Below, in pieces: positions 19,862-59,978 of a DNA stretch of 64,000 bases. Origin of the DNA: Candidatus Latescibacterota bacterium (lineage in GTDB: Bacteria; Latescibacterota; UBA2968; GCA-2709665); contig OZ244937.1 of NCBI GenBank assembly GCA_965222075.1, forward strand, positions 3,584,001 through 3,648,000. The letters run 5' to 3'. The notes beneath the pieces were generated by a model. The model saw only the letters and a program-made list of their open reading frames with translations, had not been told where the DNA came from and did no database searches. Both the position numbers and the translations under genes were made by a program. Position 1 is the stretch's first letter. Each line of letters opens with the position of its first letter.

Positions 19862-20749
19862 TCAGGTCCTCGGATCCCACTCCTCTCCCAGCTTGTCAAA
19901 CTGCTCGTAGAACGAATCCAGCACCGCCTGCGAAAGCGGGCCTTTCCCCACTAATTCCACGTTCTTCCGCGCGTGTTCCGGATTCGTGGTCCCCACAATC
20001 GCCGTATCGATCGCGTCCTGAGACAGCGTGAAGCGCAGCGACAGCTCCATCGGGTCCCCGGACGCGCCTTCGGGCACCTGAAGGTGCTGCCCCCGCTCCC
20101 AGTAGACATCGGCATAGCTATAAGGAGAGGCCGCCTGCCCGAAAGCGCCGTTGGCGATCGGACGCTTGGCGATCACCCCCATTCCGGCCGCCACGGCCCC
20201 GGGCAGCACCTCGTGCCGCGCCTTCTGGTCCACCAGGTTGAAAGAGGTCTGAAGCGTGCTGAAAAGGCCCATCCGGATCGCCTCCAGGGCGTCCTCCCCG
20301 TCTCCGCTGTAGCCCACGTAGCGGACCTTCCCGGCCTCCTTCGCCTGCATCACCGCCTCAACCGCCTCCCCCACCCGGAGCACCTCCGCCGAGCAGCTGT
20401 GAAGCTGCATCAGGTCGATATGGTCCGTCCCCAGCCGCTTGAGCGACCGGTCGATACTCTCCGTGATCACCTCCCGCGACCAGGGCTCACCGGTCGCTCC
20501 TCCGGCCACGTGCCCGCACTTGCTCGCCAGCACGTACTCCTCCCGCCGCCCGCCGATGAACCGCCCGATCAGTTCCTCACTGTTGTCGTAGCAGGCCGCG
20601 GTGTCGATAAACGTGACCCCGATGTCCAGCAGCGTGTTCAGCACCGCCTCGACCCGATCGTGCAGCGTGTCCTCAATCCCGAACCTCGCGCCTCCAAATC
20701 CGAGGCGGGTGACAACAAGGTCGGTCTTACCCAGCGTTCGTTTCTCCAT
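19862..20749 (-). CDS. Aldo/keto reductase
   Basis: RTLGKT..LGFG, IDTAACY, LASKCG, SLKRLGTDHIDLMQLH. Start ATG 20749. Confidence 0.92.
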   Translation of the reverse strand: MEKRTLGKTDLVVTRLGFGGARFGIEDTLHDRVEAVLNTLLDIGVTFIDTAACYDNSEELIGRFIGGRREEYVLASKCGHVAGGATGEPWSREVITESIDRSLKRLGTDHIDLMQLHSCSAEVLRVGEAVEAVMQAKEAGKVRYVGYSGDGEDALEAIRMGLFSTLQTSFNLVDQKARHEVLPGAVAAGMGVIAKRPIANGAFGQAASPYSYADVYWERGQHLQVPEGASGDPMELSLRFTLSQDAIDTAIVGTTNPEHARKNVELVGKGPLSQAVLDSFYEQFDKLGEEWDPRT

Positions 20750-20934
20750 ATCGCAACCTCCCAACATCTCTCCTCGGTTAAGTGGAAATGAACTTCGCAA
20801 AAGCAAACGTCCGGACAAGCCGGACGATAACAGGCCGGAAACCGTAGGCCACGGACCACATACCCAACTACCCAAATATAGACACAAATAGGCAGGCAAA
20901 CAAGGCCACAATGGAAAAGGCATTCTCGAAACCC

Positions 20935-21016: not shown

Positions 21017-21343
21017 ATGCACACCGCAGAACTCGGCAGCACCGGTATCCGCGTCTCCCGCCTCTGTTTCGGCACCGGCACCCACGGCTGGGCCGGGCGC
21101 TCGGACCAGGAGCGCATGGACGCAGCCGGCATCGGCGTCTATGGCATGAAAGTGGTCGGCTGTGGCGACCTGGGAAACGACGCCCGGGACGCCATCCACT
21201 TCGTCCTCGACCTCCCCTCGGTAGACGCCATCACCATCGGCATGGCAAGCCGGGATGAAGTGGATGAAAACATCGGCTGGGTCGAATCCCACCTGCCTGT
21301 GCGTCGCACGCAGACAGGCGATCGGTCCTTCCAGCCGGTTTGA
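21017..21343 (+). pseudogene. Internally deleted aldo/keto reductase (N- and C-termini fused) carrying a 27-bp palindromic insert
   Basis: ELGSTGIRVSRLCFGT joined directly to GIGVYGMKV..AITIGMASRDEVDEN; catalytic core missing. Confidence 0.8.
21292..21318 (+). mobile_element. 27-bp palindromic insertion element, copy 1
   Basis: CCTGCCTGTGCGTCGCACGCAGACAGG; exact reverse complement of 58198-58224. Confidence 0.85.
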
Positions 21344-54605: not shown

Positions 54606-55834
54606 CGACAAGGGAGACAACCCGCCTTGCGGACCTGTGCGATCTGATCGCGGAGCCGGTCAAACCCGGTGCGCGGCCAGATGCGCTCTATCTTGGCCTT
54701 GAACATCTTGCCTCGGGGCGGCTTGTTCGCATCGGTGGCGGGTCGGCTTCAGACGTGCGAAGCACGGCCTCGGCCTTCCAACCCGGCGACGTCCTGTACG
54801 GCAAGCTCCGGCCTTACCTGGACAAGGCTGTCCTCGCTAAGGAGGCGGGCGTCTGCACGACGGAGTTGCTGATGCTCCGGGCCAAGGAAAACGTGGACCC
54901 GCGGTTTCTTGCCACGGTCGTCCACTCTCCCGGCTTTCTTGATTATGCCGTCGCGGGAACCACGGGCGTCCAGCATCCGAGGACATCGTGGGCACACATA
55001 CGCGACTTTGAACTATCCGCATTTACGCTCGATGAGCAGCGACGTATTGCCGACCTACTTTGGCTTATACACGAGGCAATGAGCCGATCAGAGAGATTGG
55101 TTGAAGAAGGTCAAGACCTCAAACGCGCCGCGATGCGAATGCTGTTCACACGCGGGCTACGGGGCGAGGCGCAGAAGGAAACCGAGATTGGCCCGGTGCC
55201 GGCGAGTTGGAATGCAGAACCCATTGGAATGCTGACAACTATAGTTTATCGATATCCAACCTACTACAGAATCAACTACAAGGTTAGCGGTGTGCCTGAA
55301 GTGCGAGGCGAGTTGCTTAGGGACGGCGGCGAGATCGAAACAGACCTGTCTCTGTTCCGATTCATTGATGCTGAAACGGCATCGCACTTTCCAAAGGTCC
55401 GGCTTGATGCTGGCGACATAGTCATGTCGGTCCGTGGCACAATGGGAAAGGTTGGCATCGTCCGAGAAGCCCATATTGGAGCTGTCATTACTGCCAACCT
55501 TATTCGTCTAGCGCCCGACCGGCGGCGAATATTACCTGAGTTCTTCAAGGCCACCCTCGTTTCCGAGCGTTTCTTCAGATCACTAGAGATGGCTTCTCCA
55601 CAGACTACAATCAAAACCATCACTGCCCCAGTCCTGAAATCATTACGCCTGCCAGTCCCTCCAACACTCGACGAGCAGCGGGAGATTGTGACCATCCTGG
55701 ACGCCATCGGACGCAAGATTGACCTGCACCGCCGAAAGCGCGCCGTGCTGGAGGAGCTTTTCAAGGCACTGCTCCACAAGCTGATGACGGGGGAGGTGCG
55801 GGTGGAGGGTTTCCCTTCACATCGAATCGGGTAG
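54602..55834 (+). CDS. hsdS: Type I R-M specificity subunit
   Basis: Two TRDs with conserved regions (LDEQRRIA, KETEIGPVPASW, PPTLDEQREIV, LLHKLMTGEVRV). Confidence 0.93.
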   Translation: MTTRETTRLADLCDLIAEPVKPGARPDALYLGLEHLASGRLVRIGGGSASDVRSTASAFQPGDVLYGKLRPYLDKAVLAKEAGVCTTELLMLRAKENVDPRFLATVVHSPGFLDYAVAGTTGVQHPRTSWAHIRDFELSAFTLDEQRRIADLLWLIHEAMSRSERLVEEGQDLKRAAMRMLFTRGLRGEAQKETEIGPVPASWNAEPIGMLTTIVYRYPTYYRINYKVSGVPEVRGELLRDGGEIETDLSLFRFIDAETASHFPKVRLDAGDIVMSVRGTMGKVGIVREAHIGAVITANLIRLAPDRRRILPEFFKATLVSERFFRSLEMASPQTTIKTITAPVLKSLRLPVPPTLDEQREIVTILDAIGRKIDLHRRKRAVLEELFKALLHKLMTGEVRVEGFPSHRIG

Positions 55835-55846
55835 AGGGAACCAAAG

Positions 55847-56749
55847 ATGATTCGAAGTCTTTTCGATGTTCCGGGTCTTAAGCCGTACATTAACCCTGGT
55901 GTATGGGGCAAGGGGCTTGGAGGCCCGATACATACCCTTGACATCCCTCCAATAGATGCACAACTGTGGAGGTACATGAACTTTGCCAAATTCGTATCCA
56001 TGCTAGAAACACGGCAGTTGTTTTTCACCAGGGCAGATAAGCTGGACGACCCCTTTGAAGGGGTTTGGTCAGAGCCGACTTTAAGGCAGCTCGATAGCCT
56101 AATTGTGCATGGTGACGACAAGGGGCGTACGGATCCAGTCACCGGAGATAGATACCTGAGTGAGAAGGAGGCAGCTCGTTCGTGGAAACGCATCATAGGT
56201 GGACACTCTCAAGTGAAAAGGCGATTCACGCTCCTAAACTGTTGGCGTGAAGGCGAGCATGAATCGGAGGCAATGTGGAATCAAACTCCCCGGCATGGTG
56301 AAAAGTACGAACTTGCCATCAGATCCGACTTCAAGTCCCTCGCACATAGTTTCCCCAGCCGCAGCCGCCTACCCGACATAGTAGCGAGAGTTCAGTATAT
56401 TCCGTATCAGACCAAAGAAATGCCTCTGGGTCTTGCTGCTCCTTATTTCCATAAGCGCATTGAATTCCAGGACGAGCGCGAAGTGAGGGCAATTATGTCC
56501 GCCACCCCATATGTACCAGATCCTGCCCATCCCGATCGTGATGACGTGATGGTTCCGGATTACTCAAAAGACGTTTGCGATGTCGGTCTCGGTTACGAAG
56601 TCAACCCTGCTGATTTGATTCACGAGGTGGTTATCAGTCCTCATGCTCAGTCTTGGCTTTCTGAGCTGGTAGTGAGAGTAATAGAGCGGTATGGGCTTAA
56701 AATCCCCGTTAGCCAATCGCAACTCCTTGGGATCCCTCGTTGGAAATGA
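55847..56749 (+). CDS. DUF2971-like protein
   Basis: LWRYMNFAKF, DDPFEG, NCW..ESEAMW, KRIEFQDEREVR, EVVISP; lower GC. Confidence 0.7.
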   Translation: MIRSLFDVPGLKPYINPGVWGKGLGGPIHTLDIPPIDAQLWRYMNFAKFVSMLETRQLFFTRADKLDDPFEGVWSEPTLRQLDSLIVHGDDKGRTDPVTGDRYLSEKEAARSWKRIIGGHSQVKRRFTLLNCWREGEHESEAMWNQTPRHGEKYELAIRSDFKSLAHSFPSRSRLPDIVARVQYIPYQTKEMPLGLAAPYFHKRIEFQDEREVRAIMSATPYVPDPAHPDRDDVMVPDYSKDVCDVGLGYEVNPADLIHEVVISPHAQSWLSELVVRVIERYGLKIPVSQSQLLGIPRWK

Positions 56750-56927
56750 ATATTGAGTCCCCTCCGAAAACGGGGGATATAAAAGCCTGGTGTAAGTGGT
56801 CAGGGTTGGATATTGTGATTTAGCGTGTGGCGACGATATAACGTGTAGGTGCGGCATATCAACTCAGGGTCAACCTACGGAGTTGTTCAGGCCTATGGTA
56901 TGGAGGTTTTTCGCAAGAAAACCCCTC

Positions 56928-58481
56928 TTATGCGGGGAGCATCGGGGGTGTTGTGAGGTAATTCTTGATCCGAACCAGGTTGACCCATAGGCCACGACAC
57001 CGCGCCCACAATTGGTGTGGCCTCAGTCCGCGATAGCGCGTCTTGCCATCTTTGGTGTAGTAGCTCAACTGAAAGATGCTGGCTTCGACGTTATTGCGTC
57101 GGTTTCTGATGTGGTCAGGCAGGGCTTCAATCTGTTTGCGTTTGAGGTAATTGTCGATGTGCTGTTCTTTAAAGTATCGGGGTTTGCCATCCATGATGAT
57201 TTTGTATTTTCCCGGTTTGTATTCTTGGGCTATGTGAACCTCTCCGGTTTGTTGATCAATGACGGTGACGCCGTCTTCTGTGCGTTCATAAATGAAACGT
57301 CCTGGGGTTCCTTGCAGGCCACTGTAATAGAATTGCTTGTCCTGTTCTTTTGCATACTCGGCGTTGGATTGATCATTATAGGCCCCATCCATTGACACTT
57401 CCAAGACGTCACCCACCACCTGTTGCGTCCGCTCGATGGCCGCTTGGACAAACGCATTGTCGGGCGTCGTCGCCGGTTTGACGTCAACGTCCGTGATCAA
57501 ATTGAGGCCGTCCTCACCACAGGTCTCGGTGAGGTTGACACTGTATCCTTTCACCTTGTCCTTCCCTTTCCTGCGAAAGGCCGCCTCTTCATCATCGGCA
57601 GACTGCAAGGAGGATGAGGAGATCTCTTCAGGAGGCTTCGGAAGCACCTGTTTGGAGGACGATAAAACGGTATATTGATCCCCCATAACACGCACGATCA
57701 GACCATAGTGACCGCTGTCTTTGTCGGTATAGGTCGCTTGAAGCCTGCTCAATAACTGCCCGAATTCCTGCAGCTTCTCACACTTTTCAACGCGGGTGAG
57801 ACCATAGACAACCTGATGCGCCTTCACCTTGAGCAATCCGTCCAAAACCTGCTGATTTTTTGCCGATAATCGTCGCTTTTGGGACTTGTCCAACGACCCC
57901 CAGAACGCTTGTAAGCAACTCACCACCAACTGCAACCGACAACAAAGGGCAATGTTCGAGCCGATCAACTTACTGTCCATTCGGATGTGCTGACCCAATA
58001 CACCAAAGGCGTTGGCCTGCGTCCTGGTTAAGCTGGAAAAGGTCTCTCCAATCAGATCTCGACCGGCTTCGAGTTGATCCGCATACAATGCCTGCTTGAA
58101 CAAATAATACGTGGACTCCGCAGGCACTTCATCGCATAGATTCATCAACCCCAATGCCCGCATCACCAGGATGTTGAACCGACAATGCTCGAATAGTCCT
58201 GTCTGCGTGCGACGCACAGGCAGGTGGGCATCGCTCCACCCAAAGCCCTCCTTCAAGATCATCATCGACACCAGTTGACGAATCGGCGCATTGGGGCGGC
58301 CTTGGTTGGGATCAAACAACACCGAAAACACATCCTCATCTATCTTTGAGGTGACGTGCTGGTAAAACAGATTATGCCACGACTTCGGATCATTCAACTG
58401 GTCCTGCTTGCGCCTCTTGAAATGCGACTCGAAGCCCGAAAACAGATCCGGTTGGCTGCATGACGCGCTTCTCTTATACAT
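56928..58481 (-). CDS. DDE transposase with a 9-aa in-frame insert (LPVRRTQTG)
   Basis: GRPNAP, RMDSKLIGSNI, MDGAY, RNNVEASIF. Confidence 0.88.
   Translation of the reverse strand: MYKRSASCSQPDLFSGFESHFKRRKQDQLNDPKSWHNLFYQHVTSKIDEDVFSVLFDPNQGRPNAPIRQLVSMMILKEGFGWSDAHLPVRRTQTGLFEHCRFNILVMRALGLMNLCDEVPAESTYYLFKQALYADQLEAGRDLIGETFSSLTRTQANAFGVLGQHIRMDSKLIGSNIALCCRLQLVVSCLQAFWGSLDKSQKRRLSAKNQQVLDGLLKVKAHQVVYGLTRVEKCEKLQEFGQLLSRLQATYTDKDSGHYGLIVRVMGDQYTVLSSSKQVLPKPPEEISSSSLQSADDEEAAFRRKGKDKVKGYSVNLTETCGEDGLNLITDVDVKPATTPDNAFVQAAIERTQQVVGDVLEVSMDGAYNDQSNAEYAKEQDKQFYYSGLQGTPGRFIYERTEDGVTVIDQQTGEVHIAQEYKPGKYKIIMDGKPRYFKEQHIDNYLKRKQIEALPDHIRNRRNNVEASIFQLSYYTKDGKTRYRGLRPHQLWARCRGLWVNLVRIKNYLTTPPMLPA
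58198..58224 (-). mobile_element. 27-bp palindromic insertion element, copy 2
   Basis: Identical to copy 1; excision turns WSDAH-LPVRRTQTG-LFE into WSDAQLFE. Confidence 0.9.
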
Positions 58482-58743
58482 CGATACTGTACCCTCGCTT
58501 TTTCCTTTTTACATCCGCAACTTTGAAACCTTTTCTCTCTTGGAATTTAATACTTTTTCCTCAATAAGTAAACTCGACTTTTCGGAGTGGACTCAATATT
58601 GGGTACCTAAGCTTGGAGTTTGAGAGGCCGCAGCGCCTGTTTTGCGTCACTCAGTTCCGGGGAACCAAAATGGATGGCGTTTCTGGCATACCGCCCGTTC
58701 AACTTCGCGCGGATCGACGAGTCACACCATGCTGGATCATGAA

Positions 58744-58840
58744 GTGAGACCCGACGACATCTCAGCACTGTTCGCGGCCGGCGAGTACGAGACGCTGGAG
58801 TTCAAGGCCACGACCGAGACGCGTCGCGAGGCTACCATGA
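58744..58840 (+). pseudogene. N-terminal stub of an AlbA_2/Schlafen-domain protein
   Basis: MRPDDISALFAAGEYETLEFKATTETRREA. Confidence 0.6.
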
Positions 58841-59116
58841 GTGATGTATAACGTTTCTGTTGGTTCTGGCCAAGTCTTAGGATCAGACAACTTGAACTTG
58901 GCGCCGTGTATTGGAGGACGTCCCCATCCTCGATAGGGGGGTGGGGGTCCCCAAAGACATCGATTGGGACGGATACGGATGACCTGATCGGCGTCAATAT
59001 CGGCCGTGGTTTCCACGAAAGGGGCACAGCCATATTCTGAGTCCCACAAGCTGATGGGACGACCCTTCACCGCTTTTGACACCCGACGGAGTTGGTCCGC
59101 GCCTTTCTTTATCGGA

Positions 59117-59143
59117 CCTGTCTGCGTGCAACGCACAGGCAGG
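59117..59143 (-). mobile_element. 27-bp palindromic insertion element, copy 3 (one substitution)
   Basis: CCTGCCTGTGCGTTGCACGCAGACAGG; excision gives STTDPIKK. Confidence 0.88.
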
Positions 59144-59449
59144 TCGGTTGTGCTTTGGATGCGCTCATGTAATAAAGGCAGCGCAAAGCTTCGCTCCTCA
59201 TCGGGAAGAAAGGCGAGGGTGCTGTAGCCTTGCCCAATCGTAATGGGCTTGTTGCCCCATATCGGGGTGGGATGATGCTCAATGGTTCGGTCGCGTAAAG
59301 TCCGCGCTGACAATCGCGGCCAAGCCGTGTGATCTCCCACAAAAAGGGGACGATCATCTACTTTTATCTCATCAGCATAAAGCTTCAACAACGCGTTTTG
59401 GTCTGGACGACCATCTTGAAGGGCTTCATAGACACTTGGCCACTGCCGA

Positions 59450-59474
59450 CCTGCCTGTGCTGAAGGCAGACAGG
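59450..59474 (+). mobile_element. 25-bp variant of the palindromic element, copy 4
   Basis: CCTGCCTGTGCTGAAGGCAGACAGG; excision fuses the two transposase ORFs as PVFRRQWPSVYE. Confidence 0.85.
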
Positions 59475-59978
59475 CGAAAAACTGGAGCAAGGGATAGCTC
59501 GGCAAAGCTATTGGCCGATGGGGTTAACAACACTGCGTCGAGCAGATCAAACAGCGCATCTTTGGCTGTGCCTAATCCTTCATAGGCGGTTTGACGAAAG
59601 GCGCTCAGCCGCTCATACTGTTTTCCAAAAACCGGATCTGAGATCGCACAGGCATCTTGAATATACTTGACTTCCGAGGGGTCTGACGATAGCTTTCTCA
59701 TCGTGGGCTCCTTAGTAGAATACAGACTCTTTAGCGAAAGGCTGTATTCAATTTACTTTGGAGCCCCTTCTATTTCAACTCTTTTAGTCTAAACACGAGT
59801 GTCATAGCAATAGCACGAAACGAAGCGCGACAGCGATCTATCACCGCGCTGGACACAGGTTCTGCCCGAGGACGCGCTACAAGCACCGACAAAACTCAAC
59901 CGGCGAATCGGAAACGCTGGCATTCAAGGCAACAAGGCCGACGCCCCGCCGCGAAGGGACCGAACGAGAGGCAAGCAA

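Follow-up and report, generated by a model that had tools for sequence, protein, structure and literature searches.

A 27-bp hairpin insert in a transposase gene of Candidatus Latescibacterota and the probable superfamily of very small insertion elements to which it belongs

Within a 64,000-nucleotide stretch of the genome of a Candidatus Latescibacterota bacterium (contig OZ244937.1, positions 3,584,001 to 3,648,000; the whole stretch is referred to here as the window), the transposase gene of an insertion sequence (IS) contains a 27-bp palindromic insert, and this insert and its relatives are the subject of the present analysis. Among the systems that invite comparison, the small dispersed repeats (SDR1-8) of the Nostocaceae, described by Elhai et al. 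in 2008, are reportedly about 21-27 nt long, form hairpins in some cases, and are nested in larger mobile elements; to our knowledge, no enzyme that mobilises them is known. Later papers cite SDRs as mobile small repeats (PMC3116915, PMC5861425) and describe them as confined to Nostocaceae (PMC5861425). REP sequences and REPINs, according to PMC3116915, are imperfect palindromes of 20-40 bp that occur in hundreds of copies, leave no target duplication, and are thought to be moved in trans by the hairpin-reading RAYT. Rickettsia palindromic elements (RPEs) are presented in PMC10969869 as palindromic selfish DNA of approx. 100-150 bp that lies in frame in unrelated metabolic genes and is translated; about half of the copies are placed in open reading frames (ORFs), and the encoded peptide is said there to be conserved (PMC10969869).

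A hairpin insert in a transposase gene

The insert (CCTGTCTGCGTGCGACGCACAGGCAGG, window 58198-58224 as read on the + strand) is a true insertion in the transposase gene, whose reading frame it keeps open. It likely belongs to a superfamily of tiny, lineage-specific insertion elements that form hairpins and would be non-autonomous and mobilised in trans. The locus comprises the following features:

58198-58224, the + strand carrying a T.G wobble: 27-bp hairpin micro-insert, defined by an exact 27-bp gap at related IS loci and by its fold
56928-58481, - strand: 517-aa transposase ORF, made up of 508 aa and the 9 aa of the insert, with a DUF772 N-terminal domain, IS5/IS1182 type
56754-58595, - strand: whole IS, 1842 bp including the insert, delimited by inverted repeats and ATAT flanks

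Precise insertion at this site is apparent from related ISs. In 10 of 10 aligned related IS loci, taken from genome records titled Candidatus Latescibacterota, GATGCCCA|ACTATTC is uninterrupted, i.e., there is an exact 27-bp gap with zero duplicated bases. Likewise, all 58 site-spanning copies of the IS (from 11 genomes, among the 52 related genomes of the order that were searched) are empty, being 27 nt shorter than the query span, one of them by more. At the protein level, 2473 homologues of the transposase were retrieved, the close ones being mostly 508 aa long, and the nine residues are missing from 22 of 26 aligned transposase proteins. The insertion changes CAA (Q) to CAC (H) and adds LPVRRTQTG (residues 87-95), and the 517-aa protein reads ...SDAH-LPVRRTQTG-LFEH at this point. 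The insertion point lies between GATGCCCA and ACTATTC in a low-GC (low guanine-plus-cytosine) IS that was probably acquired recently; being 27 bp long and stop-free, the element is simply read through within the DUF772 domain.

As single-stranded DNA, the 27-mer, a near-perfect palindrome with two 13-bp arms, folds into a hairpin (DNA fold -6.7 kcal/mol), the outer stem of which contains the T.G wobble on the + strand and a C.A mismatch at the same position on the other strand. Six-frame translation finds no TAA, TAG, or TGA on either strand. What an earlier, sequence-only reading of this DNA had claimed for the insert, namely that it has a length divisible by three (3n), is stop-free in six frames, and leaves the ORF open, was borne out, together with its position and the six translations. 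For a single 27-mer, stop-freeness is unremarkable and within chance, since all six frames are also free of stops in 34.3% of 100,000 shuffled versions of the 27-mer and in 31.3% of as many 27-mers drawn at random from the genome.

A DDE transposase with DUF772, terminal inverted repeats, and a short target duplication are all present in the host IS, which is of the IS5/IS1182 type. Residues 61-133 of the transposase match DUF772 (PF05598, E 1.4e-5, profile positions 1-65 of 74), and its homologues carry PF01609 or PF13751. The same reading was right to credit the IS with both of its inverted repeats: these are 17 bp long (56754-56770 and 58579-58595), agree at 16 of 17 positions, and are flanked on both sides by ATAT (56750-56753 and 58596-58599), the 4-bp direct repeats varying from one IS copy to another (ATAT, AACA, GCCT, AGTT). 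The IS is probably a recent arrival, since its GC content is 50.4% in a window of 60.1%. Neither blastn nor tblastn found a further copy in the window's genome, where the IS is single-copy. An AlphaFold model of the transposase has a mean predicted local distance difference test score (pLDDT) of 51, with values below 50 in the N-terminal third, and its placement of the insert in a coil between two helices is unreliable.

Matches to the 27-mer number three in the window, against none expected from 100 shuffles. The two further copies and their surroundings are as follows:

21292-21318, - strand: second exact copy of the 27-mer, read as LPVRRTQTG, 8 codons ahead of the stop in a 108-aa ORF (21017-21343, + strand)
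59117-59143, + strand: third copy of the 27-mer, with 1 mismatch (loop AA, as against GA in the insert), in frame in a DDE_5 (IS701-like) transposase ORF and read as LPVRCTQTG
58762-59701, - strand: DDE_5 (IS701-like) transposase gene in two pieces (ORFs 59426-59701 and 58762-59505)
59450-59474, - strand: 25-bp family member that contains TGA and frameshifts the neighbouring DDE_5 transposase

All three 27-mers lie opposite to the coding strand of their ORF and in one shared phase, reading LPVR(R/C)TQTG, so that the common strand and codon phase noted from the sequence alone hold true. Two of the three hosts are not intact recognisable genes; the 517-aa transposase is the only one that is, because the DDE_5 ORF 58762-59505 is already frameshifted and the 108-aa ORF matches no Pfam family. 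In silico removal of the 25-mer joins both DDE_5 ORFs, giving an open stretch of 321 codons vs. 253.

Several observations concern the surroundings of these copies. By eye, the ends of the 108-aa ORF resemble both ends of an aldo-keto reductase such as the one encoded by the adjoining gene (19862-20923, - strand), and the ORF may be a collapsed remnant. In the low-GC patch at 55800-59800 (50-53% vs. 60%), two different IS elements adjoin each other, accompanied by a 300-aa ORF that has no family match and terminates at the IS boundary. At window position 59430, a contig from public run X8 has an extra 27 nt (26 + 1) of another GC-rich palindrome inside the DDE_5 gene, which is a between-sample presence/absence difference of another hairpin family. 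In a contig from run X12 (depth 3.2), the right end of the host IS (58596) is joined to its left end (56753) with GG between; this junction has four bases between abutted IS ends, like an IS circle or a tandem pair, and the host IS family may be active in the community of that run. Across the whole window, there were no Rfam matches.

The hairpin superfamily in the genome and among relatives

In the window's genome, a single 5.36-Mb contig of 59.3% GC, the pattern CCTG[TC]CTG-N(0-50)-CAG[GA]CAGG occurs in 288 stretches, 225 of which are simple units of at most 40 bp; the same pattern written backwards, used as a control, gave 0 matches. Once copies sharing flanks are collapsed, 176 independent sites remain. 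The elements range from 19 to 39 bp and are mostly 27 or 33 bp long (93 copies of 33 bp, 50 of 27, 19 of 30, 17 of 25, 13 of 36, and 8 of 19). The outer eight base pairs of the stem are conserved, CCTG(Y)CTG...CAG(R)CAGG, whereas the inner stem and loop vary among subfamilies yet stay paired. One sequence cluster of 33-mers (79 copies) and one of 27-mers (43 copies) together account for more than half of all copies.

A comparison of every copy, flanks included, against the remainder of the genome produced 247 alignments with paralogous repeats. In many of these, a unit of 19, 27, 30, or 33 bp is exactly present in one partner and missing from the other, with no duplicated flank, and in some, one unit lies within another. 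Among the 98 oriented TG/CA copies, a purine stands at flank position -1 in 89 and a pyrimidine at +1 in 93, with G at +4 in 79. Insertion is thus precise at the foot of the hairpin, involves no target duplication, and usually occurs between a purine and a pyrimidine; the landing places are intergenic DNA, other hairpins, MITEs (miniature transposable elements with inverted repeats), IS transposase genes, and housekeeping genes. Clusters of up to eight tiny hairpins within 7 kb were observed at G000:C1:493700-500450 and 2826500-2832700, two regions that are partly duplicated, with the proteins between the elements 93% identical.

The superfamily abounds in just one family of Candidatus Latescibacterota. 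Its pattern is found in 55 of 151 sampled genomes of the phylum, including 17 of 18 genomes of the window's family (f1), where counts reach 215, 193, and 190. In a sister family (f2), it is patchy (15 of 30 genomes, one with 79), and elsewhere in the phylum it occurs in ones and twos. Across the order, counts of 133 and 113 were also obtained, other genomes having 0. The exact 27-mer is present in 12 of 41 close genomes, and the dominant loop variant differs by genome.

In two of these relatives, multiplication as a passenger can be seen directly. All 20 of the 28-mers fetched from genome G009 share one flank (18 with no coding flank and two with one), and all 11 of the 27-mers analysed from genome G019 have MITE-type flanks; in both, the 27/28-mers lie near one end of an approx. 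200-330 bp MITE-like repeat with its own terminal inverted repeats of approx. 18 bp (loci L126-L165), copies of which differ by further nested tiny hairpins. Paired ends of this MITE number 0 in the window's genome. Passenger amplification on a larger mobile element does occur, on the MITE of G009 and G019; hitch-hiking of the insert on the host IS, as suggested from the sequence alone, gains no support from the relatives, whose site-spanning copies are empty.

Public protein data add a different view of the host IS. They include close variants of the transposase that share 88-97% identity with its insert-free form and range from 508 to 578 aa, and their alignment reveals inserts at eight sites in combinatorial presence and absence: the present site (also with a nested second 11-aa unit), six others with in-frame inserts of 9-11 aa, and one with a frameshifting insert near the C-terminus. 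Judging from these sequences, colonisation of the host IS by hairpin inserts appears to be ongoing. Database records of the identical 517-aa protein come from 8 contigs. Protein P0009, from another sub-lineage of the IS, carries the same nine residues at the same site, which would suggest that the site is a hot spot or that copies exchange sequence.

Genes house only a minority of the elements. Under a strict test of intragenic position, an element must be flanked on either side by 180 bases of stop-free, coding-like sequence; 82% of random positions in genes and 1.6% of non-genic ones are recovered in this way. By this test, 31 of 225 copies, at 31 of 176 sites (approx. 18%), are clearly intragenic, whereas approx. 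70% would be expected of harmless insertion at random. Copies of 3n length are no exception in avoiding genes (31 of 176 sites are intragenic, the genome being approx. 87% coding). Nonetheless, 27 intragenic copies keep the frame, with coding sequence on both flanks. When 20 of these 27 hosts were scanned against Pfam, 16 matched families; the in-frame hosts include ATP synthase epsilon (atpC), FGAM synthase (purL), a UvrA-like protein (two inserts), AcrB, and UvrD, as well as Cas4-Cas1, a sigma-54 activator, and a histidine kinase. The 33-bp insert in atpC, which lies in a loop of the beta-sandwich domain, is missing from all 20 orthologue matches in the family, each being exactly 33 nt shorter; four of five relatives entered the corresponding DNA alignment, L167 being left out. 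Non-3n copies of 19, 31, and 34 bp break frames, and their in silico removal restores them.

The in-frame copies are unevenly distributed among the codon phases. Phases 0, 1, and 2 are used by 8, 2, and 17 of the 27, respectively, vs. shares of 0.25, 0.41, and 0.34 expected from targeting of purine-pyrimidine steps in the coding sequence of the genome (p=0.0006). Moreover, 8 of 13 genic 27-mers use one orientation and phase for which a flank matrix from non-genic sites predicts 18%. Cysteines are encoded in phase 1, the least used, and in phase 0. This bias fits filtering at the peptide level after insertion.

Length, reading frame, and mode of movement

Lengths divisible by three occur at 139 of 176 independent sites (79%), with peaks at 27, 30, 33, and 36 bp, and 204 of 225 copies, or 96 of 109 distinct sequences (88%), are stop-free in six frames. 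The corresponding share is 55% for sequences with a shuffled inner part, 72% for hairpin-preserving shuffles, and 26.5% for random genomic stretches; the nominal p=7e-5 overstates the case, since the variants are related. The 3n excess and the scarcity of stops are thus family-wide properties that are not confined to genes. It had been proposed from the sequence alone that the length and stop-freeness of the insert reflect selection for "stealth" insertion. The dominance of 3n, stop-free forms across the family agrees with this proposal, but the predicted enrichment in intact genes does not appear (27 of 31 intragenic vs. 112 of 145 other sites, Fisher p=0.33), which is essentially the outcome that had been named in advance as speaking against it. 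No such enrichment is seen because 3n lengths dominate everywhere (77% outside genes). With looser gene calls, the figures are 75 of 82 genic vs. 105 of 143 other copies (p=0.0009), in a set that includes ORF ends and doubtful ORFs.

The 3n excess may reflect either element-lineage selection or founder effects. On the second of these readings, to which we would give slightly less than an even chance, a small number of master copies were by accident 27 and 33 bp long, and ordinary host selection did the rest; stops would be scarce owing to the G+C-rich palindromic composition, and the in-frame copies in genes would simply be the non-lethal ones. The dominance of one 33-mer and one 27-mer cluster is in line with this, as is the roughly one-in-three probability of a single 27-mer lacking stops by chance. 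In genome G009, a 28-bp sister outnumbers the 27-mer (32 copies vs. 9), and the phase bias is what would be expected from peptide-level filtering. However, the 33-bp class contains many different inner stems of equal length, and neither a ladder of lengths in steps of three nor a contrast between multi-copy and singleton sequences is predicted by founder effects.

It is these last features that make adaptation at the level of the element worth considering, although we think it rather doubtful. Lineages that are 3n, stop-free, and encode a harmless loop would leave more descendants because their copies in genes and transposases persist and ride along. In agreement with this, 3n lengths are found at 112 of the 145 sites outside genes, which are not subject to any frame filter; lengths climb in steps of 3 (27, 30, 33, 36), though a stem pair adds 2; 3n lengths are found in 10 of 14 multi-copy (at least two copies) sequence clusters vs. 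5 of 20 singletons (p=0.013); and stop-free variants exceed the share obtained with hairpin-preserving shuffles. Furthermore, the 27- and 33-bp forms make up 26-76% of the 25-36-bp matches in seven other genomes, where 17% would be expected (two of twelve lengths). However, there is no significant 3n enrichment in genes, which house only approx. 18% of sites, and non-3n forms have multiplied as well: in the window's genome, 25-mers occupy 13 sites and 19-mers 7, and the 28-bp sister is present in 15 copies in G020 and 11 in G019, in addition to the 32 in G009. It should also be noted that the independent subfamilies are few and the variants related, so that the p-values overstate the case for adaptation.

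Two further explanations fare much worse. A role of the inserts for the host or the IS, e.g., through hairpins in the transposase mRNA or DNA that damp its expression or through a host process that marks or disables IS genes, is very improbable. The eight insertion sites in one transposase family, and the location of three of the four window elements in transposase genes, would be in keeping with such a role, but most copies lie outside genes and outside ISs, similar units occupy atpC, purL, and uvrA, and frame-keeping inserts (seven of the eight sites) are a poor means of disabling genes. Finally, it is scarcely credible that the element is an ordinary MITE, i.e., the terminal inverted repeats of a DDE-type IS placed back to back and moved by its transposase, since the near-perfect palindromic arms and the many non-coding, non-autonomous copies that recall a MITE are accompanied by zero target-site duplication at any examined empty/filled pair and by no parent IS, the 4 weak pairs of matching ends (100-4000 bp apart) being neither repeated nor convincing in enclosing a gene.

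Mobilisation in trans is the preferred reading. The elements would be non-autonomous and moved by an enzyme that reads the base of the hairpin when folded in single-stranded or extruded DNA and makes its cuts precisely at the hairpin ends, in a process akin to the hairpin-dependent, duplication-free transposition of the IS200/IS605 and REP/RAYT kind. Purifying selection in the host would then clear most genic copies, and the survivors would favour the frame that encodes a hydrophilic loop bounded by Pro and Gly (x-LP...Q-T/A-G). The more specific proposal of a single-strand hairpin cut-and-paste or copy mechanism, driven by an enzyme of unassigned kind, is tentative and, to our mind, has roughly one chance in three. 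The strand asymmetry of the elements (the T.G wobble on one strand only, conserved) fits the recognition of one strand.

Several results weigh against this reading, the first of which is that no mobilising enzyme was found. A classical Y1/HUH transposase was considered as the mobiliser and rejected: the genome has two Y1_Tnp matches, the intact one, an ordinary IS200-like gene, is accompanied by unrelated hairpins, and no element lies within 3 kb. Across 53 genomes, Y1_Tnp matches and element load do not co-vary; G019, for example, has 133 elements and 0 Y1_Tnp matches, whereas G004, with 32 such matches, has 0 matches of the 27- and 33-bp forms and G038, with 68, has 1 element. The search for an autonomous partner, with matching ends 100-4000 bp apart enclosing a gene, gave only the 4 weak pairs mentioned above, and the genes between 40 pairs of neighbouring elements include no recurrent family. 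Orientation relative to replication is only weakly biased (57:41, p=0.13), which counts against a strictly lagging-strand single-strand mechanism because a stronger bias would be predicted. Copy numbers overstate independent insertions because many copies in relatives are MITE passengers, and the gene calls, made in this analysis from codon usage (4026 genes, 86.8% of the genome), miss atypical genes. Recent movement at 58198 is not demonstrated, because no contig pairs empty and filled alleles: contigs from 4 public runs stop at the repeat, and none skips over the 27 bp; one contig (run X9, record 27) crosses the left junction of the insert. No empty allele was seen among them, a result that is uninformative for contigs. 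A metagenome scan with a 20-nt IS/insert junction pattern returned 18 loci, all of them chance matches in unrelated coding sequence and none from the host IS.

Some side observations can be placed here. In the element-rich relatives G002, G003, G020, and G021, open frames of 1200-1440 aa contain weak matches that resemble Y1_Tnp (profile positions 40-121, E 1e-8 to 1e-10), and one of these starts approx. 300 bp from a 27-mer in G021 (L015, G021:C1:4546152-4549178); in the window's genome, there are no matches of this kind. The cumulative GC skew is lowest at 4.22 Mb and highest at 1.38 Mb, which are likely the origin and terminus, and genes are co-oriented with replication at approx. 2:1 on one arm and 1.5:1 on the other.

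Comparison with known systems

If the elements really move, hairpins of 25-36 bp would mark the lower size limit of mobile DNA. It is conceivable, though we consider it unlikely, that they are the smallest coding-compatible mobile DNA known, selected as lineages for 3n length, stop-freeness, and a harmless loop bounded by Pro and Gly; if this were true, they would settle in essential genes and in the transposase genes of ISs and MITEs and then be carried within and between genomes. The elements show how conserved proteins (ATP synthase epsilon, FGAM synthase, and UvrA, for instance) can acquire short peptide loops, and they offer a natural test case for the question of whether selection can make selfish DNA compatible with translation. 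They also show that the transposase of an IS need not be active when its reading frame is open; any frame stays open by construction when a 3n, stop-free insert is added, so that the open ORF described here is uninformative on transposase function. In practical terms, short-read assemblies break at every copy of the element, and protein-length variation in metagenomic catalogues is inflated, as illustrated by one transposase that appears at 508-578 aa.

Among the known systems, MITEs differ from the present elements, which have no target-site duplication and no parent IS with matching ends. Palindromes derived from IS200/IS605 share with them the lack of target duplication and the hairpin ends; IS200/IS605 elements also insert beside a fixed target of 4-5 nt and show a strand bias that follows replication, and on these points the present elements have a loose purine-pyrimidine flank preference, with G favoured at +4, and a slight bias of orientation (57:41). 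REP sequences and REPINs are likewise short palindromes in hundreds of copies that leave no target duplication and are presumed to move in trans. REPs, however, are extragenic and flank a RAYT (Y1) gene, whereas the only intact Y1 gene here has unrelated hairpins, and the present elements are mostly but not solely extragenic, in view of their 31 intragenic sites.

SDRs, which are known to us by description only, resemble the Latescibacterota hairpins in size and in nesting, and neither the in-frame occupation of housekeeping genes nor the 3-base ladder of lengths can be attributed to them on that basis. In function, RPEs correspond to the 27 in-frame copies, since they too are inserted in frame in unrelated protein-coding genes. 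Nonetheless, RPEs belong to Rickettsia, measure approx. 150 bp, and encode a conserved peptide, whereas the elements of Latescibacterota, at 19-39 bp, are about a fifth of that size, lie mostly outside genes, and are found nested within one another as well as within MITEs and IS genes. Full-text searches with 13-mers of the element, which returned two unrelated papers, and with Latescibacter* plus "palindromic" found no published account of these elements. As far as such searching shows, nothing of the kind is in print for this uncultured phylum, in which the phenomenon is that seen in Rickettsia and cyanobacteria, in miniature.

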